Below the pieces are notes generated by a model. It had not been told where the DNA came from. It saw only the letters and a program-made list of their open reading frames with translations, and ran no database searches. From an uncultured bacterium (lineage in GTDB: Bacteria; Acidobacteriota; Thermoanaerobaculia; Multivoradales; JAHZIX01): a stretch of DNA of 64,000 bases. Positions 19,301 to 42,887 of this stretch are shown in pieces (position 1 is the stretch's first letter; each line of letters starts with the position of its first letter). Position numbers and translations under genes: made by a program. Where the stretch lies: the NCBI GenBank assembly GCA_965368975.1, contig CBDUPA010000009.1, positions 96,001-160,000 of the forward strand, given 5' to 3'.

Positions 19301-20077
19301 TCAGGCTTGCGAGCGGCCGGAAGCCGTAATAATAGCCCAAAACGAGTCTGGGTCAAGGCTGGCTCCCCCTACGAGGAAGCCATCGACGTCACTTTCGGCG
19401 ATCAGCTCGTCGACGTTGGCCGGCTTGGCCGAGCCACCGTAGAGGAGGCGCGTGGCGGCCGCGGTGTCGGCGCCGAGCTGCGAGACGAGCTGTGAGCGCA
19501 GGAAGGCGTGGGCTTCCTGTGCCAGCTGCGGTGTCGCCGTCTTGCCGGTCCCGATCGCCCACACCGGCTCGTAGGCGATGGCGAAGGTGCGCGGGTCCCA
19601 GCTCGAACTCGCCGCCAGCACGGCGCGCAGCTGGCGCTCCAGCACTTCGAACGTGCGCTCGGCTTCCCGCTCTTCGAGCGTCTCACCGACGCAGATCATC
19701 GGCCTGAGGCCATGTTCCCGCGCCGCCAGCGCCTTGCGCGCCACGTGCGCATCGTCTTCGCCATGGTCGGCGCGCCGCTCACTGTGCCCGCACAGCACCC
19801 ACGAGCAACCGATGTCGGTCAGCTGCGGTCCGGAAGTGTCGCCGGTATGGGCGCCCTTGGCGGCGGTGTGCAGATCCTGGCCACCCCAGGAGGCAGTGGA
19901 CCCGGCCAAGCCCTCGGCGACCGTCGGCAGCAGGGTAAAGCCGGGAAAGAGGACCACGTCGGCCCCCGGGTCTCCCGCGGCCAGGTGCTCGCGCAGGCGT
20001 GCCGAGAAGGCTTTGGCATCGGCGCGCAGCAGGTTCATCTTCCAATTGGCGGCGGCGATTGGACGTCGGGTGGTCAT
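19301..20077 (-). CDS. tpiA: Triosephosphate isomerase
   Basis: ANWKMN, GHSERR, AYEPVWAIGTG, LYGGS, GFLVGGASL. Confidence 0.97.
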   Translation of the reverse strand: MTTRRPIAAANWKMNLLRADAKAFSARLREHLAAGDPGADVVLFPGFTLLPTVAEGLAGSTASWGGQDLHTAAKGAHTGDTSGPQLTDIGCSWVLCGHSERRADHGEDDAHVARKALAAREHGLRPMICVGETLEEREAERTFEVLERQLRAVLAASSSWDPRTFAIAYEPVWAIGTGKTATPQLAQEAHAFLRSQLVSQLGADTAAATRLLYGGSAKPANVDELIAESDVDGFLVGGASLDPDSFWAIITASGRSQA

Positions 20078-20094
20078 GTTTTCTCCTGCGGGGA

Positions 20095-20163
20095 GGACAG
20101 CCACATTGGGCCGCCCCTACCCGGAATCTGAATCTGGGTAGGGGCACCCCCGTGCGGGTGCCC
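20095..20163. repeat. Pair of divergent GTAG-type REP-like palindromes (REPIN-like)
   Basis: GTAGGGGCGGCCCAATGTGGCTGTCC (minus strand) and GTAGGGGCACCCCCGTGCGGGTGCCC (plus strand) separated by a short spacer. Confidence 0.6.
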
Positions 20164-20192: not shown

Positions 20193-21440
20193 TCACTTCG
20201 CCAACGCCGTCACGCCCGGCAACTCTTTGCCGGCAAGGAATTCCAGCGACGCGCCGCCGCCGGTCGAGACGTGGTCCATGCGGTCGAGGACGCCAGCATG
20301 GGCGGCCGCGCCGACGGTGTCGCCACCACCAACCACCTTGAAGGCGGGGCTGTCGGCGACGCCGTGGGCCACCGCGACGGTACCCGCGTCGAAGGGCGGC
20401 TTCTCGAACACGCCCATCGGGCCGTTCCAGAAGATGGTACCGGCGCGGCCGAGGGCTTCAGCGAAGGCTTTGCAAGCTTCGGGACCAATATCCAGGGCCA
20501 TCGTTCCCGCTGGCACGGCATTGGCGGCCACGGTCTCGATGCGTTGCGGCTGGGCGAAGTCGTCGGCGATCACCAGGTCGCTGGGTAGCAAGACTTCGGT
20601 GTCGGCGGCGGCGGCACGCTCCAGGATCGACTTGGCGAGGTCGAGGCGATCGCGCTCGACCAGCGAACTGGCCAGGTCCAGGCCCTGAGCAGCCAGGAAC
20701 GTGTTGGCCATGCCGCCGCCGATCAGCAGCTGGTCGAGGCGCGGCAGAAGGTTGTCCAGGGTGTCGATCTTGCCTTCGATCTTGGCGCCGCCGAGGATGC
20801 CGGCGAAGGGGCGGGCAGGCTCATGGAGCAAGCGGCCAAGGGCTTCGATCTCGCGCACCAAGAGGCGGCCGGCGGCCTTGCGGGAGAGCCGCGCCGGCAC
20901 CCCGACGACCGAGGCGTGGGCGCGGTGGGCTGTGCCGAAAGCGTCGCACACGTAGGCGTCGGCGAGCGACGCCAGCTCGGCGCTGAAGGCATCGTCGTCG
21001 GCTTTCTCACCAGCATGGAAGCGTAGGTTCTCGAGCAGCACGACGCCGCCATCTTGTAGCTGGTCGACAGCCGCACGCGCCACCTCGCCGAGACAGTCTT
21101 CAGCAAAAGCGACGGGCGCGTCGAGCAGAGAGGCCAGCACCTTGACCATCGGCCGTAGGCTGTATCTCGGATTCGGCTCCCCCTTGGGCCGGCCACAGTG
21201 CGAAGCGAGAACCAGGCGAGCCCCGGCGGCGCGCAGCTCTTGCAGGGTGGGCAGGGCTTCGCGCAGGCGCGTGTCGTCGGTCACCTCGACCTCGCCGTCA
21301 GCTGCACCCGGAGTCTCGCCCAGCGGTGCATTGAAGTCCACGCGAACAAAGACCCGCTGGCCGCGCAGGCTGGGGAGGTCGAGATCGTCGAGGGTGAACA
21401 TACGGATCTGGGCCGACGCGCTGGACGGGTGTTGAGTCAT
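20193..21440 (-). CDS. pgk: Phosphoglycerate kinase
   Basis: RVDFNAP, SHCGRP, LLENLRF, DAFGTAHRAHAS, WNGPMGVFE, STGGGASLE. Confidence 0.97.
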   Translation of the reverse strand: MTQHPSSASAQIRMFTLDDLDLPSLRGQRVFVRVDFNAPLGETPGAADGEVEVTDDTRLREALPTLQELRAAGARLVLASHCGRPKGEPNPRYSLRPMVKVLASLLDAPVAFAEDCLGEVARAAVDQLQDGGVVLLENLRFHAGEKADDDAFSAELASLADAYVCDAFGTAHRAHASVVGVPARLSRKAAGRLLVREIEALGRLLHEPARPFAGILGGAKIEGKIDTLDNLLPRLDQLLIGGGMANTFLAAQGLDLASSLVERDRLDLAKSILERAAAADTEVLLPSDLVIADDFAQPQRIETVAANAVPAGTMALDIGPEACKAFAEALGRAGTIFWNGPMGVFEKPPFDAGTVAVAHGVADSPAFKVVGGGDTVGAAAHAGVLDRMDHVSTGGGASLEFLAGKELPGVTALAK

Positions 21441-22537
21441 CGTTCGTCTCCGGGAGCGGCGAGGCGTAGCAACAGCTCGGCGAGGCGGTTGGCGTAGCCC
21501 CATTCGTTGTCGTACCAAGCGACGACGCGTAGCATGTGGCCGCCGTCGAGGCTCTGCAGCAGGGGTAGGTCGACCACCGCGGAGGCGGTCTCACCGAGGA
21601 AGTCCGTCGAGACGAGCTCTTCGTCTGTCACCCTCAGGATGCCGGCCAGCTCTTCAGCGGCGGCGCTTCGCAGCTGGTCCGCCGCTGCCTCGACGCTCGC
21701 CGGCCGCTCCAGTTCCAACACCAGGTCGAGCAGCGCCACGTCGGCCACTGGCACGCGTACGCCGAACCCGTCGAGACGGCCGGCCAGCTGCGGCAGCACC
21801 CAGCCCACCGCCTCGGCAGCCCGGCTGGCGACGGGGATCAGGTTGAGCGGGGCCGCCCGGCTCCGTCGAGGCTCACCTTGGCCCCCCTTGCCGTGTGCGC
21901 CGTCGAGCAGCATCTGGTTCGGCGTGTAGCCGTGCACGGTATTGACCATGCCGTGGCGGATGCCGAAAGCACGATGCAGCACCGCCACGATCGGCGCGAT
22001 GCAGTTGGTGGTGCAGGAACTGTTGCTGATCACGCGATGACGAGCGGGATCGAAGGACCCCTCGTTGATGCCCAGGCAGAGCACCGCGTCCACCGCCGGC
22101 AGGTCGGCTGCGTCCGGGTTCCACGCCAGCACGACTCGCTCGGCACCGTGCGCCTGTCGGGAGGGGGCCCGTCCGGAGCGAGCATCTCTCGAGCGGGCCG
22201 CGTCGTTCCGCAGGTGCCCACGGGCGGCAGCGACGGTCACGGCGCCTGTGGCTTCCACCACCAGCAGGTTGTCCTCCTCGGGCCACGGGATATCGACGGG
22301 CGAGGCGGCGGCAGACACCGGCACGCGCCGGCCATCGACCAGCAGGGCGTCAGGCTCGTGGCCGATTTCGCCAGGGAAGCGGCCGTGCACCGAGTCGCGG
22401 GCCAGCAGGCGTGCGAGCACCGGTGCCGGGACCAGGTCGTTGACCGCCACGCAGCGTAACCGCGGATGTTGCCGGGCGGCGCGCACCAGCGCCCGACCGA
22501 TACGGCCCAGGCCGTTGATTGCGTAGGGAATGGACAT
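21437..22537 (-). CDS. GAPDH/erythrose-4-phosphate dehydrogenase family protein (divergent)
   Basis: INGLGRIGR, SNSSCTTNC, TVHGYT, RVP and WYDNEWGY are present, but the phosphate-site loop is atypical (IPVASRAA). Confidence 0.85.
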   Translation of the reverse strand: MSIPYAINGLGRIGRALVRAARQHPRLRCVAVNDLVPAPVLARLLARDSVHGRFPGEIGHEPDALLVDGRRVPVSAAASPVDIPWPEEDNLLVVEATGAVTVAAARGHLRNDAARSRDARSGRAPSRQAHGAERVVLAWNPDAADLPAVDAVLCLGINEGSFDPARHRVISNSSCTTNCIAPIVAVLHRAFGIRHGMVNTVHGYTPNQMLLDGAHGKGGQGEPRRSRAAPLNLIPVASRAAEAVGWVLPQLAGRLDGFGVRVPVADVALLDLVLELERPASVEAAADQLRSAAAEELAGILRVTDEELVSTDFLGETASAVVDLPLLQSLDGGHMLRVVAWYDNEWGYANRLAELLLRLAAPGDER

Positions 22538-24972
22538 CAATCTGATTCGTCGGAGGTGCCACCGTCGGTGGACTCTGGATAGCCGCGACGGTCGGTGATC
22601 ACGATACGTAGCTCGCAAGCGTAGCGCTGGCCGTCGGCATCCGGCAGCCACGTCTGGTGTAGGTCAGGAAGCATTTCGGCCAGCCTCACGCGCGGGTGCG
22701 GCTGCGCATCCAGCGCGGCGCGGACGGCTCGTACGAGCAATTCTACGAACACCGGACAGCTGAAGTCGACGTAGATCGGCTTCAATTCCGTATCGACGCG
22801 CAAGAACACCCGCTCCGGCAGCTGCCGGCGCAGCCACCAAGCACGTGCTCCGGCAAAGCGGTCGGCCGGCGTGGCGGCCTGCACGAAGTCCATCTCCGCG
22901 CCGTCGAAACTCCAACGTCGACGGTTGACGACCAGGCGGTCGAGACTCACGCGCGGCCAGTAGTCGGCATCGCCGAGCAGGCGGCAGCTACTGACCACGC
23001 TGTGGGTCAGGACCTTGGCGACCGCCTCGGCGAGGTCGAAATCAACCTGCTCATCACTGTGCGAGCGCAGACGTAGACCACTATGGCCGTCCTCGGCACC
23101 CGCGGCTTGCACATCGACGACGATCAGATCGTCGGGCTCCACGCGTTGCTCGGGAGGAATCATCGAACGACGGTCGCGCGCGGCGACGATGAGGTCGTGA
23201 CTCGGGATGTGCAACGGGCCGAAGCGAGTGATCACGACGTCGGCATTGGAATCCTGGAGGTGGAAACGCGTCTCCCGGATCTCTGTGTCGAGAGCCTCGC
23301 GCAGGGCGTCGAGATCCGGGTGCAGGACGCTGGTGGCCCAGACGCTGAGCGAGTTGTGGGCAATGTGCATCTCGCCCAGCACGGCAAAGAAGTCGCCAGC
23401 CCGCAGCGCGTCCGGCCCTTCGGCCGCCAGCAGGACGTCCGGCGAGGTGTAGCGGGCCAAGCTCCAACCCGGCTCGGTGAGCGGAAAGGCCGCCTCGACC
23501 TTCGGCCGCAACTCGTCGACGCTGCGCTGCACTTCTTGCACCTGCTCCGCGCCGGGTTCGACCTCCAGCAGCGCCTGCCAGCGACGCTGAAACTCATCCA
23601 GGGCTTCTTGGGTGAAGGCACTCCGATTGTCCCCGACGAGGTGCCGCGACAGCAGTGGCCAGAAGTGCTGCACCGGGACTTCCGGACCGTGGGTGTGCGT
23701 CAGCTCCCGGTACAGAGGCTGGGCGACTTGCCGCAAAGCCGCGGCAACTTCCGCGCTCAGCCAGCGCACGGAATGCAGGAGGAGCGACATCGGCTCGGCA
23801 ATCGCGCGCCGCACCTCGGGACCGAATTCGAAGGTGCCCGCCCGCCGGCAGTCTTCGTAGGCCAGCGTGCGTGCGGCGTAGTCCTGGCCGGCGTGGCGCG
23901 TGGCAGCTGCTCCCGTGAGGCGCTGAAAGGTCGCGTTCAGTGAGCCGATGGCGGCTTCCAGCTGTTGCGGTTCACCGGCCGCCTGCACGACCCGCTGGCG
24001 CGCCGCCTCGACCTCGTCGATCGGAGCCAGTGCCGCGCGCCGCAGGTCGGCGTCGCCGATGCTCTCGACCTGGGAACGCAGCGCTTGCAGCGCATGCGGC
24101 CCGGACGGCAAGTAGAAGTCCCAAGCCAGGCAGCCTTCGCGCTGGAAGTGCTCCAGCTGAGCCATCACCTCGGCCGGCTCCCGATACGCACACTGCGAAT
24201 CCTCGGCCAGCTCGCGGCACAGCTGGTGTGCTGACCGGCTGCCGTCCGCGGCTTCGAGCACGGCGAGTTGATCGTCATCGACGACCAGCGCGGGACCCGT
24301 GAGACGGTTGAGACGGCCATCTTCATCCAGCCAGTGGAAGGGCAGGAGCTGCGGTGGCAACCAGGTACGAATGTCCTCCAGCTGCAACAGGATCTTGGCC
24401 AGCTCGACGACGCCCCAGCCTTCGAGGAAGACGTCGCGCGCCTCCACTAGCTCGCGCTGCGGCTCGAGGCGCACCACGGGGTCTTCACCGTCGCTCCATC
24501 GTGCCCAACCCATCGGGCCGAAGAAGCCGATCGTGTCGTTCTTGACCGTGTAGCGCTGCAGGTACTTGGCCACCAGCTGCTCGCGTCGACGGCGCTTCTT
24601 GGGGGCGCCCTGGTAGCGAGTTTCCGGCAGCTTGAGAACACCGTTGCGGTAGGCATCGTAGTTTTGCCACAGCACGGCTTCCCGGAAACGCGGATCGCGC
24701 GTCAGCTCGTTGAGAGCCTCGGCTTGCTGGTTGTAGGCCGCTTCGAACTGCTGCTCGTAGTCGCTCCGCGCCGCCGCGATCTCAGCCTCGTCACTCTCTC
24801 CCTCGTTGCCACCAGCCTCTGCCTTGGCAAGCCTTTCCGCAGCGGCGGCGCAGGCGGGAAAGACGATGCCCTGCAACAGTTCGACGGGGAAGCCGGTGGC
24901 GCGCAAGCCGATCCAGCGCCAGGCGGTCCAGGTGTCGTACCAGGAGACGTGGTGCGGAGGCATGTCGACCAT
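22537..24972 (-). CDS. Stand-alone lantibiotic dehydratase N-terminal domain protein (PEARL-like), copy D
   Basis: LRATGFP; KYLQRYTVKNDTIGFFGP; LGEMH; EMLPDLHQTWL...RYACELR; no elimination domain. Confidence 0.88.
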   Translation of the reverse strand: MVDMPPHHVSWYDTWTAWRWIGLRATGFPVELLQGIVFPACAAAAERLAKAEAGGNEGESDEAEIAAARSDYEQQFEAAYNQQAEALNELTRDPRFREAVLWQNYDAYRNGVLKLPETRYQGAPKKRRRREQLVAKYLQRYTVKNDTIGFFGPMGWARWSDGEDPVVRLEPQRELVEARDVFLEGWGVVELAKILLQLEDIRTWLPPQLLPFHWLDEDGRLNRLTGPALVVDDDQLAVLEAADGSRSAHQLCRELAEDSQCAYREPAEVMAQLEHFQREGCLAWDFYLPSGPHALQALRSQVESIGDADLRRAALAPIDEVEAARQRVVQAAGEPQQLEAAIGSLNATFQRLTGAAATRHAGQDYAARTLAYEDCRRAGTFEFGPEVRRAIAEPMSLLLHSVRWLSAEVAAALRQVAQPLYRELTHTHGPEVPVQHFWPLLSRHLVGDNRSAFTQEALDEFQRRWQALLEVEPGAEQVQEVQRSVDELRPKVEAAFPLTEPGWSLARYTSPDVLLAAEGPDALRAGDFFAVLGEMHIAHNSLSVWATSVLHPDLDALREALDTEIRETRFHLQDSNADVVITRFGPLHIPSHDLIVAARDRRSMIPPEQRVEPDDLIVVDVQAAGAEDGHSGLRLRSHSDEQVDFDLAEAVAKVLTHSVVSSCRLLGDADYWPRVSLDRLVVNRRRWSFDGAEMDFVQAATPADRFAGARAWWLRRQLPERVFLRVDTELKPIYVDFSCPVFVELLVRAVRAALDAQPHPRVRLAEMLPDLHQTWLPDADGQRYACELRIVITDRRGYPESTDGGTSDESD

Positions 24973-24978
24973 GGTCGT

Positions 24979-27564
24979 CTAGCCCTCGTTCTGGCCGGGA
25001 CTCAATCCGAGATGATCCACCAGCACCAGGCGCACCTCGCTGGTGTAGCGGTTGCCCTCGGCATCGGGCAGCCACAGCTGGTGCAGGTCGGGCATCATTT
25101 CGGACATGCGCACCCGCGGATCGCCGCCACTTTCGAGTGCCGCGCGGACCGACTTGGTAAACAACTCGACGTACACCGGGCTGTCGAAGTCGACGTAGGT
25201 CGGCTTCTTTTCGGTGGCGACGCGCAGGAAGACGCGCTGCGACACGCCTGCGCGACGCCACCAGCTGCGGGCGCCGGCAAAGCGCTCGGCGGGTGTCTCG
25301 GCGTGCACGAAGTCCATCTCGCGACCGTCGAAGACCCAGCTCTCGCGGTGGACCACCATGTTGTCGATCCACACCCGAGGCCAGTGATCGGCGGTCGGCA
25401 GCAGCCGACAGCGCGTGACCACGCCGTGAGTGAGAAAGGCCGACATGGCGGAGAGAAAATCGAGGTCGAAGCTCGGCTCGCCGAGAGAGCGCACGCGCAT
25501 ATTGCCGTAGAGGTCGCGCACCATGACGACGTCCTCGGGCTCTACGACCTGCTCGGGCCGGGATGCCGAGGCGCGCAACATGTTCCGCAGCACGTAGTCG
25601 TGCGTCGCCGTGTGCACCAAGCCGAAGCGGCTGAGCATATTGGTGACGTGCGGTTCGTCGAACCAGAGGCGCGGCTCCGGGAGGTCGTTCTCGAGCACTT
25701 CCACCAGGGCGTCGAGATCCGGGTGCTGCGCGCCGCTCGCCCACACCCCGGCCGAGGCGTAGGCGATGTGCAGCTCGCCGAGGACGGTGAAGAAGTCTCC
25801 GCGTTGCAGGGCTTCCGGGCTCTCGGCCGCCAGCATGACGTCGGGCGAGCTGTAGCGCGCCTGGGGCCAACCCAGGTTCTCGGTAGCGAAGACCTCGCGC
25901 ACCTTGGGCCACAGCTCTTCGCTGGTCCAGCGCACCTCGTCGAGGCTCTGACCGGGCTTCCCCGGCTGTAGCCCCAGTATGTCGCGCCAACGATCGGTGA
26001 AGTCGTCGAGGGCTTCGTTGGTATGGCCATTGAGACCGGCGTCGATCAGGTGCACCGCCAGCTGCGGCCAGAAGACCAGCAGCGGCACCTCGGGACCGTG
26101 GTGTATGCGCAAACGATTGTAGACGTGGTCGAGCTCCTGGCGCAGGTGGTCGGCGACCTGACTGGTGAGCCAGCGCACGCTGTGCAGAATCGGCGCCAAG
26201 GGCACGGCGAGCGTGTCGCGGATCTCGGGTCCAAGCTCGTAGGTACCGGCGCGCAGGCAGTCTTCGTAGACCAGCGTTCGCCCGGCGTAGAGCTCGCCAG
26301 CGGCACGGGTGGCGCCCATGCCGGTGAGCTTGCCGAAGGTCTCGCCCATCGCCGCCAGTGCGCTATCCAACCGCTCCGGGTCGCCTGCGGCCGCTTCCAC
26401 GCCGCGCCGGGATCCGTCCAGCTCTTCGAGCTTCTCCAAGCAGCGCTCGGCGAGCGGACGGTCTTCGAACTCTTCGACCTGGCGGCGCACGGCGTCCAGG
26501 GTGTGGGGGCCCGGCGGTAGGCGGAACTCCCAGGCAATGGCGCCTTCAATGCGGAAGTGGTGCAACTGTCCCATCACCTCTTCCGGACTGGAGTAGCCGC
26601 ACTCGGGGTCGGCTGCCAGATCCCTGGCCAGCTGCACCGCCGAGCGCTCACCGGTCGCGTGCTCGAGCAGGAAAATCTGGTCCCGGTCCACCGCCAAGGC
26701 GAGTCCCAGCGCGCGATGCAAGCTACAGCCGTCTTCGCCCAACCACTGCAACGGCAGGGTCTGCGGCTTGAGATGGTCCATCACGCCGGGCCAGCTCATC
26801 AGCACGTGCGCCAGCGCCATGACGGCCCAGCCCTCGAAGTAGACGCTGCGCCGCTCGAGCAACCCCGCCCCGGGTTCCAGGTGCGCGACGGTGTCCGCAT
26901 CTTCGTTCCAGTCGGCCCAGCCGACCGGGCCGAAGAAGCCGATGGTGTCGTTCTTGACCGTGTAGCGCTGGACGTACTTGGCCACCAGCTCCTCGCGGTG
27001 TCGTCGGGCGCTAGAGGAATGGGTGGGGTCGGAACCGGGCAGTTTACGCACGGCGGTGTGGTACCCGTGCCGGTTCTGCCACAAGACAGCTTCTTGGAAG
27101 CGCAGGTCGGCGGCGATGTCGTTGAGGGTCTGACTCTGCTCGATCGAGGTTTGCTGGTAGACGTCTTCGTAGGCAGCAGTAGCGGCGGCGACTTCTTCCC
27201 GTGCACTGGTCACCGCATCGAGCAGCGCCGGCTCCAACACCTCGGCTGCCTTGGCGTGGACCTTGCCCTTGTTGAGCCGATTCAGGGTCTTGAACAGGGC
27301 GTTGCGGCGCGAGCGGTTGGCGTCGTTGAATTGCAGTTCGTCGAGCGCGCGGCGGGCGGCATCGGCGGCGCTATCGAGCGCCTGCCGCAGAGTGTCCTCA
27401 GCTTCGGCGATACGGTCGGCGGCGGCGGCACAGTCGGGGAAGCAGAGCCGTTGCAACATTTCGACCGGAAAGCCGGTGCCACGCAAGACGGCCCAGCGCC
27501 AGGTCGTCCAATCACCGTAGAAGGGAACGTGGTGGCGGGGAACGATGTGAGACTCGGGAATCAT
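24979..27564 (-). CDS. PEARL-like small LanB, copy C
   Basis: LRGTGFP; KYVQRYTVKNDTIGFFGP; LGELH; EMMPDLHQLWL...RYTSEVR. Confidence 0.88.
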   Translation of the reverse strand: MIPESHIVPRHHVPFYGDWTTWRWAVLRGTGFPVEMLQRLCFPDCAAAADRIAEAEDTLRQALDSAADAARRALDELQFNDANRSRRNALFKTLNRLNKGKVHAKAAEVLEPALLDAVTSAREEVAAATAAYEDVYQQTSIEQSQTLNDIAADLRFQEAVLWQNRHGYHTAVRKLPGSDPTHSSSARRHREELVAKYVQRYTVKNDTIGFFGPVGWADWNEDADTVAHLEPGAGLLERRSVYFEGWAVMALAHVLMSWPGVMDHLKPQTLPLQWLGEDGCSLHRALGLALAVDRDQIFLLEHATGERSAVQLARDLAADPECGYSSPEEVMGQLHHFRIEGAIAWEFRLPPGPHTLDAVRRQVEEFEDRPLAERCLEKLEELDGSRRGVEAAAGDPERLDSALAAMGETFGKLTGMGATRAAGELYAGRTLVYEDCLRAGTYELGPEIRDTLAVPLAPILHSVRWLTSQVADHLRQELDHVYNRLRIHHGPEVPLLVFWPQLAVHLIDAGLNGHTNEALDDFTDRWRDILGLQPGKPGQSLDEVRWTSEELWPKVREVFATENLGWPQARYSSPDVMLAAESPEALQRGDFFTVLGELHIAYASAGVWASGAQHPDLDALVEVLENDLPEPRLWFDEPHVTNMLSRFGLVHTATHDYVLRNMLRASASRPEQVVEPEDVVMVRDLYGNMRVRSLGEPSFDLDFLSAMSAFLTHGVVTRCRLLPTADHWPRVWIDNMVVHRESWVFDGREMDFVHAETPAERFAGARSWWRRAGVSQRVFLRVATEKKPTYVDFDSPVYVELFTKSVRAALESGGDPRVRMSEMMPDLHQLWLPDAEGNRYTSEVRLVLVDHLGLSPGQNEG

Positions 27565-30155
27565 GTTTCCTCTTCCTCCGCAGGGCCCGCGTGGTCCTGG
27601 CTGCCGATGTTGTCCAAGATAATGGTGCGCAGCTCACTGGTGTAGCGGTTGCCCTCGGCATCGGGCAGCCATGCTTGGTGCAGGTCGGGCAGCATTTCAG
27701 CCATGCGCACGCTCGGGTCGAGGCCGCTTTCGAGCACGGCGCGCACCGACTTGGCGAACAGTTCGACGTACACCGGGCTACCGAAGTCGACGTACGTCGG
27801 CTTCTGCTCGGTGGCCACGCGCAGGAAGACGCGCTCGGGCAGACCGTGGCGCCTCCACCAGGCGCGCGTGCCGGCGAAGCGGTCGGCCGGCGTCGAAGCG
27901 TGGACGAAGTCCATTTCGCGACCATCGAAGACCCAGCTCTGGCGGTTGACGACCATGCTGTCGATCCACACGCGCGGCCAGTGGTCGGACGCCGGCAGCA
28001 GCTTGCAGCGGGTGACCACGCCGTAGGTCAGGTGGAGGGCCATAGCGGCCAGGAAGTCGAGGTCGATCTTCGGTTCGCTCTTCGAGCGCAAGCGCATGAC
28101 GCCCTGCTCGTCGCGCACCATCACCACATCTTCGGGCTCCAGGCGCTGCTCGGGCGGCGTGGTCGACGCGCGTTGCAGGTTGCGCAGCACGTAATCCCGC
28201 TTGGGTAGAACGATCTGGCCGAAGCGGTTCAGCACAGTGCTGACGTGCGGCTCGTCGAACAGCACCCGCGACTCGCGCAGGTCGCTCTCCAGGACTTCCA
28301 CCAGGGCGTCGAGATCTGGGTGCTGGGCACCGAACAGCCATGCCGCCAAGGAGGGGAAGGTTATGTGCACCTCGCCGAGCACAGAGAAGAAGTCCCCCGC
28401 CCGCAGTGCCTCGACGCTGTCGGCGGCGATCATGACGTCCGGCGAGTTGTAGCGCGCCTGCTCCCAACCGGGGCGCTCGGACGATCCGTCTTTGGCGGAG
28501 AAGGCCGCGCGCACCTTGGGCCACAGCTCCTCGCTGGTCCAGCGCACTTCCTGGTCGACCTGCCCACGCTCCAGGCCGAGAATCTCGCGCCACTTCTCGG
28601 CGAAGCCATCCAGCGCCTCGTTGGTGAAGCTGTTGATGTTGGCGTCCATGATACTCACCGACATCGGCGGCCAGAACACGAGCAAGGGGATCTCGGGACC
28701 GTGGATCGGCGCCAGCTCGCGGTAGAGGATGTCGAGCACCTGACGCATGGCGGCGGCCACCTGGCTGGTGAGCCAGCGCACGCTGTAGAGAATCGGCGCC
28801 AACGGCTCGGCAATGCAGCGGCGGATCTCGGGACCAAGCTCGACCACGCCGTCGCGCTTGCAGTCCTCGTAAATCAGGGTGCGCGCCGCATAGAGCTGCC
28901 CCCCGCTGCGCGTCGGGTCGACCCCGGTGAGGCTGGCGAAGGTGCGATTCATGTCGTCGATCGCCTTCTCCAGCGCTTCGGTGTTGCCAGCCGCCTCGGC
29001 CACGGCCTTGCGCGCGCCATCGAGCGCGTTGATCTTGTCGTAGCAGGCATTGCGTACCTGCGAGTCGCCGAACTCGTCGACCTGCGCCCGCACGACCTGC
29101 AGCGTGTGGGGACCGGGCGGCAGGAAGAACTCCCAGGCGATCGCCCCCTCCTGCCGGAAGACGAGCAGCTGCTGCATGACCTGTTGCGGCTGGTCGTACC
29201 CACACTCGGGATCCGCCGCCAGATCCTGGCACAGCTGCTGGGCGGTGCGAGCGCCGTCCGCGGCTTCGAGCAGGCGGATCTGGTCGGCGTCGACCGCCAG
29301 CGTCAAGCCGAGAGCTCGGTACAGGCCCTCGCCATCTTCCCCCAACCACTGCAGCGGCAAGGTCTGCGGCTTGAGCCAGGGCAATACGCCGGGAATCGAC
29401 ATCAGCACCTGCGACAGCGCCAGGATCGGCCAGCCTTCAAAGTAGACGTTGCGATCGGCGAGCAGATCCGGACCGGGTTCGACGCGCACCGATGGTTGCT
29501 CCGTCTCGCTCCAGATCGCCCAGCCGACGGGCCCAAAGAAGCCGATGGTGTCATTCTTGACCGTGTAGCGCTGGATGTACTTGGCGACCAGCTCTTCTTT
29601 CTGCCGGCGGCTGCTCGACGTGTCCGACGGATCGGATCCGGGCAGCTTGAGCAGTGCTGTCTTGTAGGCGTTGTGGTTCTGCCACAGCACGGCTTCCTGG
29701 AAGCGCGGGTCAGCGGCGATCTCGTTGATCGCCTGCCCCTGCTCGGTGGACGCTTGCGCGTACGCCTGCGCGAAGGCGGCGGTGGCGTCCCGCTGCTCGG
29801 CCTGTGCCGTCCGCACGGCATCGAGCAGAGCAGGGTCCAGAACCTCTGGCGCCTTGGCGTGGACCTTGCCCTTTTTGAGCTTCTCGAGCGACTTCAGCAG
29901 CAGCTTGCGGCGCGGCTGAGTCGCCTCGCTGCGCTCCAGCTCGTCGAGGCCCCGGCGCGCGGCGTCGCAGCCGGCGTCCAGCGCTTCTTGCAGCGCCGTC
30001 TCGGCCCGAGTCAGGCGGTCGGCCGCCGCGGCGCAGGCAGGCATGGACAGCCGCCGCACCAGCCGCACGGGGAAGCCCGTGCCACGCAGGCCGATCCATT
30101 TCCAGGTCGTCCACTCGTCACAGAAGGGTACGTGGTACTTCGGAATACTCTTCAT
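27561..30155 (-). CDS. PEARL-like small LanB, copy B
   Basis: GAGGAG RBS before MKSIPKYHV; KYIQRYTVKNDTIGFFGP; LGEVH; RYTSELR. Confidence 0.88.
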   Translation of the reverse strand: MKSIPKYHVPFCDEWTTWKWIGLRGTGFPVRLVRRLSMPACAAAADRLTRAETALQEALDAGCDAARRGLDELERSEATQPRRKLLLKSLEKLKKGKVHAKAPEVLDPALLDAVRTAQAEQRDATAAFAQAYAQASTEQGQAINEIAADPRFQEAVLWQNHNAYKTALLKLPGSDPSDTSSSRRQKEELVAKYIQRYTVKNDTIGFFGPVGWAIWSETEQPSVRVEPGPDLLADRNVYFEGWPILALSQVLMSIPGVLPWLKPQTLPLQWLGEDGEGLYRALGLTLAVDADQIRLLEAADGARTAQQLCQDLAADPECGYDQPQQVMQQLLVFRQEGAIAWEFFLPPGPHTLQVVRAQVDEFGDSQVRNACYDKINALDGARKAVAEAAGNTEALEKAIDDMNRTFASLTGVDPTRSGGQLYAARTLIYEDCKRDGVVELGPEIRRCIAEPLAPILYSVRWLTSQVAAAMRQVLDILYRELAPIHGPEIPLLVFWPPMSVSIMDANINSFTNEALDGFAEKWREILGLERGQVDQEVRWTSEELWPKVRAAFSAKDGSSERPGWEQARYNSPDVMIAADSVEALRAGDFFSVLGEVHITFPSLAAWLFGAQHPDLDALVEVLESDLRESRVLFDEPHVSTVLNRFGQIVLPKRDYVLRNLQRASTTPPEQRLEPEDVVMVRDEQGVMRLRSKSEPKIDLDFLAAMALHLTYGVVTRCKLLPASDHWPRVWIDSMVVNRQSWVFDGREMDFVHASTPADRFAGTRAWWRRHGLPERVFLRVATEQKPTYVDFGSPVYVELFAKSVRAVLESGLDPSVRMAEMLPDLHQAWLPDAEGNRYTSELRTIILDNIGSQDHAGPAEEEET

Positions 30156-30213
30156 GCCCTGCTCCTCATAGCCGGAACGGAAGCGGTTCCGGAATCCTCG
30201 TTGCGGACGCGGG

Positions 30214-32802
30214 CTACCCCGAGGGTGGGGCTGCCTCGTCATAGCCGATGCGGTCCGTGAGGATGATCCGAAGCTCACTGGTATAGCGCTGACCGTCCGC
30301 GTCCGGCAACCACGTCTCGTGCAGATCCGGCGACATCTCCGCCATCTTGACCTTGGTATCTTCCCCCTTGAGCAAGGTGGCGCGGATCGCCTTGGTCATC
30401 AGCTCGACGTAAATGAGGCTCGAAAAGTCGACGTAGATCGGCTTCAGCTCGGTAGCTACACGGAAGAACACGCGCTGCGGCAGCCCGTGACGACGCCACC
30501 AGTCGCGCGCACCGGCAAAGCGCGCGGCGGGCGTCGCGGCGTGCACGAAGTCCATGTCACGACCCTCGAACACCCAACTTTCCCGGTGCGCGATCAGGTT
30601 GTCCAGCCACACGCGCGGCCAGTGATCAGCGGCTCCCAGGATGTTGCAGCGACTGACGATCCCGTAGGTCAGGAAATGGGCCAGTGCCTCGGTGATGTCG
30701 AGGTCCACGTCGTCGTCGACCAGGGAGCGCAGGCGGACGCCGGCGTCGGTCTTGACCACCACCAGATCTTCGGGCTCCAGACGCTGCTCGGCCGGGATGT
30801 CCGTGGATCGCCCGATCGAGGCCACCACGCGATCTCGCCGCGGGACGATGATCGGGCCGAAGCGGGTGATGTAGTCCGAAGCGGTCGGGCCCGTGATGTG
30901 GAACTTGCCCAGCTGCAGGTCGCTTTCCAGCAGCCCTTTCACCGCTTCGATGTCCGGATGTTGCGCGCCGAACAACCACACACTGAGCGAGTTGTAGGCA
31001 ATATGCAGCTCGCCGAGCACGGCGTGAAAGTCGCCGCGCGCCAAAGCTTCGGCACTCTCGGCGGCGAGCATCACGTCCGGAGAGAGGTAGCGGGCACCTT
31101 CCCAACCCGGAAGGTCGGCGGCAAAGGCCTCCTCGACGCGGGCGCGTAGGTCCGCTGAATTGCGCCGGATCTCCGTGACGGGATCGTTCGGCTGAAGCTC
31201 TAGAATCTCCTGCCAGCGGCGCTGATACTCGCTCACCACGTCCTTGGAAAAGGCGTTGACGTTGTCGTTACTGAGCTGCATCGACATCGGTGGCCAGAAG
31301 CTGGCCACGGGCACCTCGTCTCCATGGAAGAGCGAGAGTTCACGCAGCACCGGCTCGATGACCTGGCGCATGGCGTCGGCGACCTCGCGGGTGAGCCAGC
31401 GCAGACTGAAGAGAATCAACGACAGCGGCTCGGCGATGGTGTTGCGCACCTGCGGCCCCAGCTCGACGACCCCGGCGCGCAGACAGTCCTCGTAGGTCAA
31501 GGTGCGGGCGGCGTAGTCCTCGCCTGCACCCCGCGTCGGCGCCGTATCGGTCAGGCGAGTGAACGTCTTGGCGAGATCTTGGATCGCCGCTTCCAAGCGT
31601 GCCGGATCGCCCGCCGCTTCGGCAATGGCGCGGCGCCCTTGTTCGAACTCGTCGATCCGCGCCAGGCACCGGGCACGTAGCTCCGGGTCACCGAAGCTCT
31701 CGACCTGGTCGCGCACGGCGTCGAGAGTGAACGGCCCGGCCGGCAGCACGAAGTCCCAGCCCAGCGAACCTTCGCGGCGGAAGTGGTCGAGTTGTTCCCG
31801 GACCTCCTCCGGCGTGGTGTAGCCACATTCCGGGTCGGCAGCCAGATCCTGACACAGCTGCCAGGCGGTCCGTTCTCCGTCCAGGGCGTCGAGCAGCGCG
31901 ATCTGATCGTCGTCGACCAGCAATGCCGGCCCCATCGGGTGGATCAAGCGACCTTCGTCGTCGATCGTGTGCAGAGGCAGCAGCTGCGGCCGCAGCCAGG
32001 CGCGCGTGTCTTCCAGTTCGAGCAACGTGCGGGCCAGCTCGACGACCGCCCAGCACTCGAAATAGACCGTGCGCCGGGCCAGCAGATCGTCTGCCGGTTC
32101 CACCCGCGCGATCAGGTCTGGGTCTTCGCTCCAATCCACCCAGCCAACAGGACCGAAGAAGCCGATGGTGTCGTTCTTGACGGTGTAGCGCTGGACGTAC
32201 TTGGCGACCAGCTCTTCCTTCTGGCGCTGGCCGCTGGAAGTGTCCGCCGGATCGGCGTCCAGCAGCTTGTGCAGCGCCGTCTTGTAGGCGTGGTGGTTCT
32301 GCCACAGCACGGCCTCCTGGAAGCGCGCGTCAGCGGCGATGTCCTGCAGCCGTCGACTCTGCTCCGTGTGGGTCTGCGAGAAGGCCGCCTCGAAGGCGGC
32401 CTGCGCCGCCGCTTCTTCGTCACGGGCAGCGACGACCGCGTCGACGGTAGCCGCCGCCAGGACCTCCGCGAGGCGCGCGTGCAGCTTGCCCTTCTTGAGC
32501 TTCTCGAGCGACTTGAGCAACAGCTTGCGGCGCGGCTGGTTGGCGTCGCTGCGCTCCAACCCGTCGAGGCTCGCGCGCAGCGCGTCGCATGCCACTTCCT
32601 GAGCGGCTGCCCGTCGCTGCCGTGCCTCTGCGAGGCGGTCGGCGGCGGCAGCGCACCCCGGGAAGCTCAAACGCTGCACCAGGGCCGTAGGAAAGCCGGT
32701 GCCGCGCAGACCAGCCCAGCGCCAGGCTGTCCATTCATCGCGGAACGGTACGTGATTGCGAGGGACGGAAACCGTCACTGGACACTGCACTGGGCACTGC
32801 AC
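30214..32802 (-). CDS. PEARL-like small LanB, copy A (first transcribed)
   Basis: GGAGGA RBS then GTG at 32802 (alternatives at 32790 and 32778); KYVQRYTVKNDTIGFFGP; LGELH; RYTSELR. Confidence 0.88.
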   Translation of the reverse strand: MQCPVQCPVTVSVPRNHVPFRDEWTAWRWAGLRGTGFPTALVQRLSFPGCAAAADRLAEARQRRAAAQEVACDALRASLDGLERSDANQPRRKLLLKSLEKLKKGKLHARLAEVLAAATVDAVVAARDEEAAAQAAFEAAFSQTHTEQSRRLQDIAADARFQEAVLWQNHHAYKTALHKLLDADPADTSSGQRQKEELVAKYVQRYTVKNDTIGFFGPVGWVDWSEDPDLIARVEPADDLLARRTVYFECWAVVELARTLLELEDTRAWLRPQLLPLHTIDDEGRLIHPMGPALLVDDDQIALLDALDGERTAWQLCQDLAADPECGYTTPEEVREQLDHFRREGSLGWDFVLPAGPFTLDAVRDQVESFGDPELRARCLARIDEFEQGRRAIAEAAGDPARLEAAIQDLAKTFTRLTDTAPTRGAGEDYAARTLTYEDCLRAGVVELGPQVRNTIAEPLSLILFSLRWLTREVADAMRQVIEPVLRELSLFHGDEVPVASFWPPMSMQLSNDNVNAFSKDVVSEYQRRWQEILELQPNDPVTEIRRNSADLRARVEEAFAADLPGWEGARYLSPDVMLAAESAEALARGDFHAVLGELHIAYNSLSVWLFGAQHPDIEAVKGLLESDLQLGKFHITGPTASDYITRFGPIIVPRRDRVVASIGRSTDIPAEQRLEPEDLVVVKTDAGVRLRSLVDDDVDLDITEALAHFLTYGIVSRCNILGAADHWPRVWLDNLIAHRESWVFEGRDMDFVHAATPAARFAGARDWWRRHGLPQRVFFRVATELKPIYVDFSSLIYVELMTKAIRATLLKGEDTKVKMAEMSPDLHETWLPDADGQRYTSELRIILTDRIGYDEAAPPSG

Positions 32803-32810
32803 TGGGCACT
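32776..32810. repeat. 12-bp tandem repeat x3 (CACTGGRCACTG) spanning the start of PEARL copy A
   Basis: Read directly from the sequence; the third copy is one base short. Confidence 0.9.
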
Positions 32811-32883
32811 CCTCCACAAGGTACGAACGAAAGCGTATCGACAGCTCAAATCAATGCCGCGGGGGGCAAAACAGGGCGCTAGC

Positions 32884-35061
32884 CTAACCCACTCGGAGTC
32901 GAACATCCACCGCCAGACAGGCTTGCGGATCCTCGCTGGCCAGGAAGGGATTGATGTCCAGCTCGCGCACGGCCGGGTGGCGTTCGGCCAGCTGGGCCAA
33001 GCGCAGCAGCGTGTCCTCGAGCCGCGACAGGTCCACCGGCGCGTCGCCGCGCACGCCTTCGAGCAACGGGAAGCCGCGTATGCCACGGATCATCTCGCCC
33101 GCCTCGGGCGGGGCCAGTGGCGTGACACCGAAGCGGACGTCGTGGAAGACTTCGACGTAGCGGCCGCCGAGGCCGAACATCAGGAGCGGCCCGAAGCGCG
33201 GGTCGGTCGAGATGCCGAAAATCACCTCCCGGCCCCCATGCACCATGCGCTGCAGCAGGTACCCCTCGGCCTGCAGACCTGCCGCGGCCAGCTGCTGCGT
33301 CATGGTGGCGAGCGCTTGCTCGACGGCAGCCTCGTCGGCCAGGTCGACGGCCACCGCTCCCGCGTCACTCTTGTGCACCAGGCCCGGCACCTCCGCCTTC
33401 AGCACCAGCGGGAAACCGACGTCTCGCGCCGCGGCGACGACGGCATCGGCGGTGTCGACGATGCGCCACGGCGCCACCGGAATGCCGTACAGCTCGAGCA
33501 CGCGGAAGGCGTCGGCGGCGGGTAGGTAGCCGTCGCTGGTACCGGCCAGTAGCGCCGCCACCGCCGCATCGTCGACGTCGAAGGGCGCCGGCGCCGCCTG
33601 CGGCCGCTGGCGCCAGGCGGCATAGCGGGCCAGGTGAGCGAGGGCGCCAGCGGCATCCTCGGGGAAGTGGTAGATCGGCGGTAGATCGTGGCGGCCCTCG
33701 ATCTCTTCGTAGAACTCCTCGGTCGCCATCACCACGGCCAGCACAGGTTTACCCACGACTGGCTTGCCCACGACGGGCTTGCCGCTGGCGTCGTGGTACC
33801 GCGCACAGGCAGCGGCGACGGCTTCGATCACATCCTTGGGATTGGTGGCCAGCGGCGTGACGTTGATCACCATCACCAGGTCGACCTCGTCATCCTCCAA
33901 CACCACCTCGACGCTGCGGCCGTAGGCCTCGGCCCCAGCGGAGGCGATCATGTCGACCGGATTGGCCGTGCTCGCCTCCGGTGGCAGGAACGACGCCAGC
34001 TTCTGCCGGCTGGCTGGCGTCAGCGTCGCGATCTCCAACCCCAGGTTGACGGCGGCGTCCGTGGCCATGATGCCCGGCCCGCCGGCGTTGGTGACAATGG
34101 CCAGGCGGCGTCCACGTGGCAGGGGGCAGCAATCGAAGGCACGAGCGACATGGAACAGCTCGGCGATCGAACTGACGCGCTGCACGCCGCAGTGTTCGAG
34201 GAAGGTGGAGACGGTGAGATCGGTACCGGCCAGAGCGCCCGTGTGACTGCTGGCGGCGCGGGCCCCCTCGGCAGTGCGCCCCGACTTGACGATCAGGATC
34301 GGCTTGCGCCGGCTCACCCGCTTGGCAATCTCGGTGAAGCGGCGCGGGTTGCCGAACGACTCCAGGTACATGGCGATCACCCGCGTCGCCTCGTCTTCCT
34401 CCCAGTACTCCAGCAGGTCGTTGCCCGAGACGTCCGCCTTGTTGCCCACCGAGACGAACTGCGTCAAGCCGATGCCGAGATCCGCCGCAACGTTCAGGAT
34501 GGCGACGCCGAGGGCACCGGACTGGCTGACAAAGCCGATCGAACCGGCGCGTGCCGGCGGCGGCGCGAAGGTCGCGTTGAGCGACATCGACGGGTCGGTG
34601 TTGATCACCCCCATGCAATTCGGCCCCACCATGCGTACACCCGCCGCCCGCACCCGCTGCTGGAGCTGCCGCTCCAGCTCCGCGCCCTCCGCGCCCGTCT
34701 CACTGAACCCAGCGGTGATCACCACCAGGCCGCGCACCCCGGCGGCCAGGCAGTCCTCGAGAGCTTCCAGGACCCAGCGCCGCGGTACCACCAGGATGGC
34801 CAGGTCGACCGGATCCGGAATCGCCGCCACCGACGGGTAGCACTTCAGCGAGTGGATCACCTGCGCATTCGGATTGACCGGGAAGACGGCGCCCGAGAAC
34901 TCGTTGATCAGCAGGTTGTGCAGCAGCGCGAAGCCGATCGAGTCGGGATTGCGCGAAGCACCGACCACCGCCACGGAGCGGGGTTCGAAGATCGCCGCCA
35001 GGCCTTGCGAGCCGAGCATCGTCACTGCGGTGGGGTCGGCGGGATGAGCATCGCGCGTCAT
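32884..35061 (-). CDS. Acyl-CoA synthetase (NDP-forming) / acetate-CoA ligase family protein
   Basis: PRSVAVVGAS, GPNCMG, SQSGA, SVGNKAD, AASSHTGA (phospho-His), NPVD, ATP-grasp HKSD...ELDINP. Confidence 0.9.
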   Translation of the reverse strand: MTRDAHPADPTAVTMLGSQGLAAIFEPRSVAVVGASRNPDSIGFALLHNLLINEFSGAVFPVNPNAQVIHSLKCYPSVAAIPDPVDLAILVVPRRWVLEALEDCLAAGVRGLVVITAGFSETGAEGAELERQLQQRVRAAGVRMVGPNCMGVINTDPSMSLNATFAPPPARAGSIGFVSQSGALGVAILNVAADLGIGLTQFVSVGNKADVSGNDLLEYWEEDEATRVIAMYLESFGNPRRFTEIAKRVSRRKPILIVKSGRTAEGARAASSHTGALAGTDLTVSTFLEHCGVQRVSSIAELFHVARAFDCCPLPRGRRLAIVTNAGGPGIMATDAAVNLGLEIATLTPASRQKLASFLPPEASTANPVDMIASAGAEAYGRSVEVVLEDDEVDLVMVINVTPLATNPKDVIEAVAAACARYHDASGKPVVGKPVVGKPVLAVVMATEEFYEEIEGRHDLPPIYHFPEDAAGALAHLARYAAWRQRPQAAPAPFDVDDAAVAALLAGTSDGYLPAADAFRVLELYGIPVAPWRIVDTADAVVAAARDVGFPLVLKAEVPGLVHKSDAGAVAVDLADEAAVEQALATMTQQLAAAGLQAEGYLLQRMVHGGREVIFGISTDPRFGPLLMFGLGGRYVEVFHDVRFGVTPLAPPEAGEMIRGIRGFPLLEGVRGDAPVDLSRLEDTLLRLAQLAERHPAVRELDINPFLASEDPQACLAVDVRLRVG

Positions 35062-35076: not shown

Positions 35077-36027
35077 TTAGCTATCGACGGGTGTGAGGCG
35101 GCTTGCGGGCATCAAGATCTGCAGCGCCGCCGGTGCGATGCGGAGGCGCACCGGTAGCTTCCAGGATAGTGGATCGCCGTCGAGTTGCAGCCGCACCCCC
35201 TCTGGGCCACGCAACCGCACCTCGCGCACTGTCGCACGTTCGAGGCCGGGCCGACCCCCGGCGACACCGAGCACCGTCGCCAGGGCGAGCTTGAGCGTCG
35301 ACCAGCGATCCCGCTGCCGCAGCAGGACGAGATCGAGCAGCCCGTCGTCCGGACGCGCGCGCGGCGCCAGCCGGAACGGCCCACCGTAGAGCGGTATGTT
35401 GCACACTGCGGCGAACGAGCCGGTCGCTGGCAACCCTGCCAGCGGCGGCTCCTGGTCCACCACCTCGACCTCGATCTCCGCATAGCTGTAGCGGCCCCAT
35501 TCGAGCAGCCCGCGCAGCAGCAGCCCACCGGCCCCGAAGGCGGCCTTCAGGCGGGCATTCTGCTGCGCCAGAATGTGGCCATCGAGCCCGGCGGAACACA
35601 TCATCAGGAACGGCTCCTCCCGCGACGCATCCGCCTCCGGCGCGCACAAACCGACGTCGAACGGCTGTGGCCGCAGCGCCCCAGCCTGCTCGGCGGCGCG
35701 CAGCGCATGGGCCGGCAGACCGAGGGCGCGCGGCAGCACGTTGGCGGTGCCCGCGGCCAGGATGCCGAGAGTGGTCGAGCTACCGAGCAGACCGCGCGCG
35801 GTCTCACGCTGGGTGCCGTCACCGCCGAGCGCGAAGGCGACCTCGGCCCCGGCCTCGACCGCCTCGCGTGCCAACCGCGTGGCGTCGCCCGGTCCCTGCG
35901 TCGGCCGGGGCTCGACGTCGAAGCCGGCCGCCCGCAGCAGACTCGGTAGCTGAAGCGCCAGGCGCCGCGCCCGACGACGGCCAGCCATCGGGTTGAAGAT
36001 CAGAACGGCGGGGCGTAGAGCAGTCAA
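35077..36027 (-). CDS. Diacylglycerol/lipid kinase family protein
   Basis: NPMAG, GGDGT, GTANV, LYGG, DDGLLD, QLDGD. Confidence 0.88.
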   Translation of the reverse strand: MTALRPAVLIFNPMAGRRRARRLALQLPSLLRAAGFDVEPRPTQGPGDATRLAREAVEAGAEVAFALGGDGTQRETARGLLGSSTTLGILAAGTANVLPRALGLPAHALRAAEQAGALRPQPFDVGLCAPEADASREEPFLMMCSAGLDGHILAQQNARLKAAFGAGGLLLRGLLEWGRYSYAEIEVEVVDQEPPLAGLPATGSFAAVCNIPLYGGPFRLAPRARPDDGLLDLVLLRQRDRWSTLKLALATVLGVAGGRPGLERATVREVRLRGPEGVRLQLDGDPLSWKLPVRLRIAPAALQILMPASRLTPVDS

Positions 36028-42885: not shown

Positions 42886-42887
42886 GC

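Follow-up and report, generated by a model that had tools for sequence, protein, structure and literature searches.

The sequence described here is a 64-kb window from an uncultured bacterium of the Acidobacteriota (contig CBDUPA010000009.1, positions 96,001–160,000 of the forward strand), and window coordinates are used throughout. It carries a tandem array of four intact, co-directional open reading frames (ORFs), B1 to B4, which fill nt 22537–32817 on the minus strand. The four proteins are probably PEARLs (peptide aminoacyl-tRNA ligases), in other words amide ligases dependent on ATP and aminoacyl-tRNA, and would act on a non-ribosomal peptide or metabolite made elsewhere. They are enzymes of a known kind; what is new is their arrangement and their context among core genes, away from biosynthetic clusters. 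The wider family to which they belong is mostly linked to non-ribosomal peptide synthetase (NRPS) genes and is apparently uncharacterised.

B1 (P0001, nt 22537–24972) encodes 811 aa and B2 (P0002, nt 24979–27564) 861 aa. The likely start of B3 (P0005, nt 27561–30155, 864 aa) is an ATG at nt 30155, preceded by GAGGAG at 6 nt, and that of B4 (P0006, nt 30214–32802, 862 aa) is a GTG at nt 32802, preceded by GGAGGAG. The longest frames extend further, to nt 30278 (905 aa) and nt 32817 (867 aa), respectively. The choice for B3 is supported by a database protein of equal length and identical start (P0005), and an 862-aa protein on record (P0006) has the length of B4 as counted from the GTG. B2 and B1 are separated by 6 nt, B3 and B2 overlap in an ATGA (−4 nt), B4 and B3 are 58 nt apart, and 81 nt separate B4 from the upstream gene for an acyl-CoA ligase. 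Internal stops are absent from all four frames. An earlier note on this DNA, made from the sequence alone, had described four tandem paralogues of ~810–865 aa with gaps of at most ~80 bp, and was right on both counts; its end coordinate, 32802, is the B4 start. The motifs it had read (LRxTGFP, KYxQRYTVKNDTIGFFGP, LGExH and EMxP...WL...RYxxExR) were all found in the four translations and in their alignment. B2 is 65% identical to B3, 55% to B4 and 50% to B1. Identity among the four is highest around the catalytic C-terminal part and lowest in an N-terminal helical hairpin (B2 residues 55–144) and in two central segments (residues 505–561 and 619–701). The alignment also shows that B1 lacks ~53 aa of the hairpin (at residues ~55–65) that are present in B2, B3, B4 and the related database protein P0008, a shortening shared by the B1 orthologue P0007 (820 aa, 89% identical).

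Each of the four proteins matches the Pfam family Lant_dehydr_N (PF04738) and no other (E 5.9e-18 to 3.8e-21, cut-off 28 bits). The elimination domain Lant_dehydr_C (PF14028) gave no Pfam match in any of them, and nothing in NCBIfam scored above cut-off. According to a January 2026 review, no experimental structure of a PEARL was yet available. An AlphaFold2 model of B1, built on 120 family sequences, was of high quality (pLDDT 91.9, pTM 0.92), and a Foldseek search of the PDB returned the split LanB TbtB as the best match (E 2e-24, Template Modelling (TM)-score 0.64), followed by MadB, MibB, GodF and NisB. These LanB-type matches had TM-scores of 0.56–0.64 over the glutamylation part, and the 10 listed of the 11 matches at E ≤ 0.001 were all chains of LanB-type glutamylation enzymes. 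Weaker structural matches were to ATP-grasp ligases, PqqD and the recognition domains of LynD/TruD. The family sequence profile, when searched against the PDB, matched only TbtB (E 1.5e-10) and, marginally, PqqD. The PqqD matches fall on a winged-helix sub-domain (B1 residues ~207–285, nt 24118–24354, minus strand) that resembles the recognition elements (RREs) of enzymes acting on peptides that are made by the ribosome and modified after translation (RiPPs). For this segment the profile matched PqqD chains weakly (E 0.0092 and 0.16), Foldseek gave probabilities of 0.84 for PqqD and 0.82–0.84 for the LynD/TruD RRE regions, and NCBIfam returned a weak match to the RiPP-binding ApyI at residues 229–275.

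The assignment to PEARLs depends on a set of residues scored in an alignment of 120 family sequences, all four paralogues included. The invariant residues (B1 numbering) are R140, R368, D512, E534, H536, R684, E787 and R789; conservation at Y137 and F723 is 90% or more, and the full set is present in each of B1–B4. The motif KYLQRYTVKNDTIGFFGP (nt 24514–24567, minus strand) holds Y137 and R140, the probable counterparts of BhaB Tyr205 and Arg208, and within it Q139, R140 and Y141 are invariant. In BhaB, the tRNA 3'-CCA end is reported to be bound by Tyr205, Arg208 and Arg429 (PMC11962472), and Y137, R140 and R368 lie, as mapped by motif spacing, on the helix and loop expected for such a site. 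A putative ATP/Mg site is formed by D512 and G533-E534-x-H536 (nt 23365–23439, minus strand), which would correspond to TglB Asp542, Glu564 and the conserved PEARL histidine. The C-terminal Glu-x-Arg, E787-L-R789 (nt 22606–22614, minus strand), would correspond to Glu801/Arg803 of TglB and Glu813/Arg815 of BhaB. The spacing used for the TglB mapping was D-22-E-x-H, with ExR ~22 residues from the C-terminus. According to the published analysis of PEARL ancestry, which derives these enzymes from ATP-grasp ligases (PMC11117183), Asp542 and Arg803 of TglB are found in PEARLs only, with Tyr and Leu in split LanBs. The same work describes the adenine-pocket Arg, Phe and Glu as common to PEARLs and split LanBs such as TbtB, and the His as conserved in PEARLs. 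Consistent with a shared adenine pocket, HMMER placed R684 opposite an Arg of TbtB and F723 opposite a Phe 40 residues away from it, a pair that fits Arg743/Phe783 if the deposited chain is assumed to carry three extra N-terminal residues.

The genome itself provides controls for this residue set, as it contains two true LanB systems. Both of its PF14028 matches are on other contigs, and each has its own PF04738 partner. On contig C13 (nt 45156–52093, locus L168) the two domains are fused in a full-length LanB of 1167 aa with a LanC gene nearby. On contig C12 (nt 117125–126002, locus L167) a 369-aa elimination ORF is directly upstream of a 922-aa PF04738 glutamylation ORF; this split pair sits beside a VWA protein and a tubulin-like protein, next to secDF. 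In an alignment to the family profile, the C12 split LanB has Pro, Ala and Phe at the positions of D512, E534 and H536, and the C13 enzyme has a gap in that region and Glu-x-Asn in place of E787-x-R789. The Tyr/Arg tRNA helix is kept in the C12 protein, and the C13 alignment begins past that helix. The PEARL-specific Asp, Glu-x-His and Glu-x-Arg are thus held by B1–B4 and not by the two true LanBs of the genome, which argues for the PEARL-type assignment. It is very unlikely that B1–B4 are instead glutamylation domains of split LanBs, which would dehydrate Ser/Thr residues in a RiPP jointly with an elimination domain from another locus, although PF04738 is their sole Pfam match, TbtB is their best structural match and the genome has two elimination domains. 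Both of these domains are already paired, the PEARL-only Asp and Arg of the array have no counterpart in the genome's LanBs, and the sequence similarity of the array proteins to the C12 split LanB is marginal (E 6.9e-6 over 80 residues). In tblastn searches, neither elimination domain matched any of 130 family loci. The earlier note had read B1–B4 as stand-alone LanB N-domain enzymes with conserved catalytic residues. That description holds for all four proteins; the set is intact, and no grouping with split LanBs whose partner lies elsewhere was seen.

If B1–B4 follow the published chemistry of characterised PEARLs, from which the steps given here are taken, ATP would be bound in an ATP-grasp-derived pocket that includes D512, E534, H536, E787 and R789, with its adenine stacked on R684 and F723, and the enzyme would phosphorylate a carboxylate on the substrate. 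The 3'-CCA end of an aminoacyl-tRNA would be held by Y137, R140 and R368, and its alpha-amine would attack the acyl-phosphate. The tRNA would then be hydrolysed off, leaving the substrate longer by one amino acid. Because the paralogues diverge most in the hairpin and the two central segments, they probably differ in the aminoacyl-tRNA or in the intermediate or acceptor that they accept. A published model, of stated low confidence, places the N-terminal hairpin at the anticodon arm of the tRNA (PMC11962472).

The array is real, and a second lineage has kept its layout. Logan contigs from two other studies (runs X1 and X5/X6) match the window at ~88–96% DNA identity, and single contigs bridge gap–B1–B2, B3–B4, B4 to the acyl-CoA ligase gene (ACS), and ACS–DAGK–ruvB–gltX, always in the same order. 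At the B2/B3 junction the read depth covers the junction, and among the listed pieces none bridges it. The matching gene order in independent studies argues against an assembly artefact. DNA identity is not uniform: pieces over B2 and most of B3 (nt 25045–29571) are ~94–96% identical, and those over B1, B4, the acyl-CoA ligase, gap/pgk and ruvB/gltX ~88–90%. Tighter constraint or recent exchange are possible explanations for the higher value. Degenerate copies are frequent among tandem paralogues, and the missing part of the B1 hairpin might be taken as a sign that the array consists of redundant or decaying duplicates, or encodes a hetero-oligomer with catalysis confined to some of the copies. 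Either is highly improbable, as all four frames are open and retain every family-invariant residue, the layout is kept in a relative at ~4–12% DNA divergence, and the B1 deletion recurs in the 89%-identical orthologue.

A search with B2 gave 1061 matches at E ≤ 0.001 among 7997 candidates scored. Most are ~850–880 aa in length, share 33–40% identity over 97–99% of their length, and are annotated either as 'lantibiotic dehydratase' or as hypothetical. In species genomes, at least 555 encoding stretches were confirmed by a scan, and the best 80 of these are from Acidobacteriota, Chloroflexota, Actinomycetota, Myxococcota, Cyanobacteria and others. Within the window's own phylum the family is rare: when the two best candidates were scored in each of 401 sampled genomes, 4 had it at E ≤ 1e-60. 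Full-length matches were found in 4 of 40 relatives. Metagenome contigs gave no closer relatives in a first scan, and a second scan yielded 50 loci, none with more than 38% identity. Among the 84 family loci of at least 12 kb, 69 have NRPS or polyketide synthase (PKS) genes within 10 kb as judged by tblastn (adenylation 68, condensation 53, PKS ketosynthase 9), with the caveat that the adenylation query may also match other adenylating enzymes. A Pfam census of 141 immediate-neighbour ORFs at 76 loci, using the first 400 aa or less of each, returned Condensation (16), MacB_PCD (11), FtsX (11), AMP-binding (9), ornithine cyclodeaminase (7), and M20 peptidase, ABC_tran and FemAB-like proteins (4 each). 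Lant_dehydr_C is not among the 25 families listed of the 83 in this census, and as the lowest entries listed are families with a single member, it can occur no more than once. Tandem copies are also found elsewhere (three at L035, two plus a divergent third at L086, and pairs in several loci), and four copies in a row were seen only in the present array.

Several family members have unusual architectures or surroundings. In Micromonospora and relatives they are fused to a thioesterase (PF00975), and in Streptomyces and relatives they carry an N-terminal extension of ~1100 aa without a Pfam match; the actinomycete loci with fused members are L105, L107, L095 and L079. At three Sorangium loci (L078, L081 and L091) the PEARL-like gene lies between an M20 peptidase gene and a gene for a FemAB-like/LPG_synthase_C protein, which belongs to another family of aminoacyl-tRNA-dependent transferases. 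These loci adjoin a 2812-aa ORF that was placed by similarity clustering, not by Pfam, in an NRPS-containing cluster.

A FastTree reconstruction was made from 140 rows, comprising B1–B4, P0007, P0008 and 134 ORFs whose alignment to B2 spanned more than 650 residues. Fragments below that length were excluded, and of fusion proteins only the part matched was retained. B1–B4, P0007 and P0008 form one clade (SH-like support 100), in which B2 and B3 pair, followed by B4 and then by the pair of B1 and P0007, with P0008 outside. This branching shows an origin of B1–B4 by tandem duplication within the lineage. Four of the five nearest outgroup rows are NRPS-adjacent or lie on contigs too short to tell, and the fifth, L115, shows no NRPS. 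The best-flanked outgroup locus (L114) has one NRPS (Condensation, AMP-binding, PP-binding and thioesterase), a MacB/FtsX permease and a PEARL-like gene. As judged from the tree and these neighbourhoods, the array is a fourfold tandem expansion, specific to this lineage, of an enzyme with relatives that work for NRPS clusters.

The surroundings of the array itself are of another kind. Downstream of B1, and co-directional with it, are gap (nt 21437–22537), pgk (ORF nt 20193–21518) and tpi (nt 19301–20104), after which a tRNA-Leu gene is next. The B1 stop (nt 22539–22537) and the gap start (nt 22537–22535) have one base in common in the sequence TGATG (nt 22535–22539, minus strand), and the frame from the ATG at nt 22537 begins MSIPYAINGLGRIGR..., the N-terminus of glyceraldehyde-3-phosphate dehydrogenase by Pfam and NCBIfam. 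From this gene overlap only, B1–B4 may be transcribed together with gap-pgk-tpi. Upstream are the genes for an ADP-forming acyl-CoA ligase (ACS, nt 32884–35061) and a DAGK/YegS-like kinase (nt 35077–36027), then ruvB (nt 36072–37112) and gltX (nt 37127–38590), all on the minus strand. This upstream block, which also includes a DUF1232 protein, is co-directional with the array and has gaps of 14–81 nt. All of these genes on both sides are context and lie outside the system. A Pfam scan covered the 40 longest non-overlapping ORFs of the window, taken from 94 ORFs of at least 200 aa with shadow ORFs left out, and found no elimination domain, LanC, YcaO, NRPS or dedicated exporter among them. No peptidase or scaffold peptide was seen close to the array, where the neighbours are housekeeping genes. 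Rfam and tRNA scans of the window gave three tRNA genes only, none within the array, and the PADLOC defence models had no match to B1, B2 or the acyl-CoA ligase. The earlier note had reported the same absences from the window and the lack of a precursor or tailoring gene near the array, and in these points it was accurate.

These surroundings bear directly on a pearlin-type pathway, in which a small ribosomal scaffold peptide, with its gene and the tailoring and protease genes at another locus, would have its C-terminus extended or reloaded by the four PEARLs. Such a pathway is possible, yet we consider it doubtful. The first characterised PEARLs are reported to use scaffold peptides, with four PEARLs in one cluster, and the RRE-like sub-domain is kept in all of B1–B4. 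However, characterised systems have the scaffold gene in the cluster, and the four junctions of the array leave no room for one; its flanks are housekeeping genes, a result for the neighbourhood of the array, as no search for scaffold candidates across the genome was made. The RREs of PEARLs are reported to be dispensable (PMC11962472), and the nearest relatives of B1–B4 are NRPS-linked. The most likely candidate acceptor is not a neighbouring ribosomal scaffold but a small molecule bearing a free carboxylate, either a non-ribosomal peptide or a metabolite, supplied from elsewhere in the genome. This preference follows from the NRPS linkage of the kin, from the NRPS-rich genome (one NRPS module query matches 28 contigs by tblastn), and from published PEARLs that act on an NRPS product and on a nucleoside.

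Several observations weigh against this favoured assignment of B1–B4 as PEARLs with a non-ribosomal substrate. NRPS genes are absent from the 64-kb window, and the sole tblastn match to an adenylation domain on the array contig (C9) is 26% identical and ~25 kb off, outside the window; with no NRPS close by, the array's own context gives an NRPS-derived substrate no support. The motif of ureido-forming condensation domains, EHHxxHDG, had no match in six-frame translations of the whole genome and was found at 3 of 130 family loci. A conserved RRE-like sub-domain would suit a peptide substrate. A link to gap-pgk-tpi would be unusual for genes of secondary metabolism, and the co-transcription is a prediction from the gene overlap. 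The correspondence with TglB and BhaB was drawn from the spacing of motifs, from the alignment with TbtB and from the genome's LanBs as internal controls, and not from a direct alignment with TglB, BhaB, AmmB, SnaE or SinB. Sequential action of the four enzymes on one substrate is conjecture.

The position of the array also invites readings outside secondary metabolism. Post-translational tailing of the C-terminus of an ordinary cellular protein would have a parallel in RimK, which adds Glu to ribosomal protein S6. It would be in keeping with an array embedded among, and probably co-expressed with, housekeeping genes, with the RRE-like domain, and with the reported ancestry of PEARLs in ATP-grasp ligases (PMC11117183); a short tag is also reported to be enough for PEARL labelling of whole proteins in vitro. 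Tailing of this kind is nonetheless improbable, as there is no candidate target, the family is sporadic (4/401 phylum genomes) and elsewhere tied to secondary-metabolite genes, and neighbourhood alone is weak evidence. In a broader form of this idea, the four diverged PEARLs, co-expressed with gap-pgk-tpi, would not serve a secondary-metabolite cluster but would put a few non-templated amino acids on a carboxylate, C-terminal or other, of a cellular protein or a primary metabolite. This is unlikely, and if true it would amount to a ribosome-independent, aminoacyl-tRNA-fed modification in core physiology. The earlier note had offered two functions, an assembly line that adds up to four residues to a scaffold encoded elsewhere and C-terminal tailing of ordinary proteins; neither an ordered four-step line nor such tailing found support, and both are conjecture. 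Its description of the array as an orphan multi-PEARL system stands in so far as the enzymes are PEARL-like and orphan. 'Undescribed' was too strong a word for members of a family of 1061 that is NRPS/PKS-linked at 69 of 84 loci, when PEARLs without a scaffold have been published.

Two sets of neighbouring genes were considered as partners of the array and rejected. The acyl-CoA ligase gene is absent from five of five same-family genomes, as a co-acquired partner might be, but orthologues with 60–70% identity are present in 24 of 40 relatives. Most relatives with such an orthologue are without the PEARL-like family, and among 130 family loci the ligase was not found once; its place beside the array is that of an ordinary neighbour and not of a partner. 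The second set, proposed as dedicated tRNA-charging partners, was gltX and a GluQRS-like gene. The gltX gene encodes the sole full-length glutamyl-tRNA synthetase (GluRS) of the genome and is therefore the housekeeping copy. The other gene (nt 13315–14379) specifies a 354-aa GluRS-like protein with the catalytic domain only, which shares 33% identity with the housekeeping enzyme and resembles GluQRS. It lies inside a stretch (nt 9164–18540) with four VWA-domain paralogues (490, 864, 909 and 498 aa). In same-family genomes pgk-tpi synteny is kept, and the ruvB-DAGK pair was kept in all four relatives examined. These were the only conserved parts in a synteny comparison of same-family genomes aimed at the insertion boundaries, and no clean site could be defined.

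The remainder of the window includes a defence-island-like stretch (nt 39376–48560). It specifies a 1169-aa SIR2-NACHT-FGE-sulfatase protein with an N-terminus that is LmuA/ThsA-like by PADLOC, a helix-turn-helix protein, a reverse transcriptase (best PADLOC match 'RT', E 5.5e-42) and a 1242-aa Mrr_cat-NACHT-FGE-sulfatase protein. Two radical-SAM proteins are encoded at nt 5418–7910 and nt 48600–50798, one a radical-SAM/SPASM protein of 830 aa fused to two methyltransferase-like regions and the other carrying Radical_SAM_N2; no link between either of them and the array was seen. Grouped at nt 55652–62231 are parB, parA, rsmG (GidB), a gene for an R3H (Jag-like) protein and yidC. The genes parAB, rsmG, jag and yidC are usually grouped in this way close to the replication origin of a chromosome.

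PEARLs are a young enzyme class with few known substrates, and four related but diverged paralogues in one operon form a natural comparison set for aminoacyl-tRNA and acceptor specificity. Their placement among core genes means either that PEARL-like enzymes can work for clusters located far away, a point of importance for neighbourhood-based rules of genome mining, or that they have a role outside secondary metabolism. The large, mostly NRPS-linked family represents a considerable store of enzymes that form amide bonds independently of the ribosome. A literature search that did not extend to subscription journals and supplements found no account of a PEARL array that is an orphan or is linked to housekeeping genes.

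Among known systems, TbtB, GodF, NisB, MibB and MadB share with B1–B4 the overall fold and the adenine-binding Arg/Phe pair. According to the published comparison of the two enzyme types (PMC11117183), TbtB-type and other LanB enzymes differ in having an elimination-domain partner, in not using ATP and in being without the PEARL Asp and Arg. TglB, the BhaB enzymes and AmmB1-4 were compared as they have been described. They too have a stand-alone LanB-N fold of ~800–870 aa with an embedded RRE-like domain and no elimination domain, and by motif spacing they have the tRNA-CCA helix (Y..R), the Asp, the Glu-x-His and the C-terminal Glu-x-Arg. Several PEARL paralogues may serve one pearlin pathway, and the ammosamide cluster is reported to have four. 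The array differs from these systems in having no scaffold, oxidase, protease or other tailoring gene near it, in being strictly tandem and of one recent clade, and in its position upstream of gap-pgk-tpi. SinB1 and SinB2 of the sinefungin pathway (bioRxiv 10.64898/2026.05.21.726688) are described as PEARLs that act on a small molecule, a nucleoside, with two enzymes per pathway, one of them iterative. Their cluster is reported to have radical-SAM, kinase and transporter genes, and no comparable genes flank B1–B4. SnaE, from the threopeptin NRPS-PKS cluster (Yu and van der Donk 2024, PMC11212132), is reported to be a PEARL-like enzyme without a ribosomal scaffold that acts on an NRPS product, in which a ureido-forming C domain provides the free carboxylate of the substrate. 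The wider family of the array is likewise NRPS/PKS-linked, and the array differs, in a comparison made by description and not by sequence, in having no NRPS in the 64-kb window and no EHHxxHDG motif in its genome; no Stackebrandtia protein, SnaE included, was among the 120 matches listed for an actinobacterial family member. SnaE and SinB1/SinB2 nevertheless provide a precedent for PEARL chemistry in systems that, like this array, lack a scaffold peptide, and so the missing scaffold does not exclude such chemistry for B1–B4.

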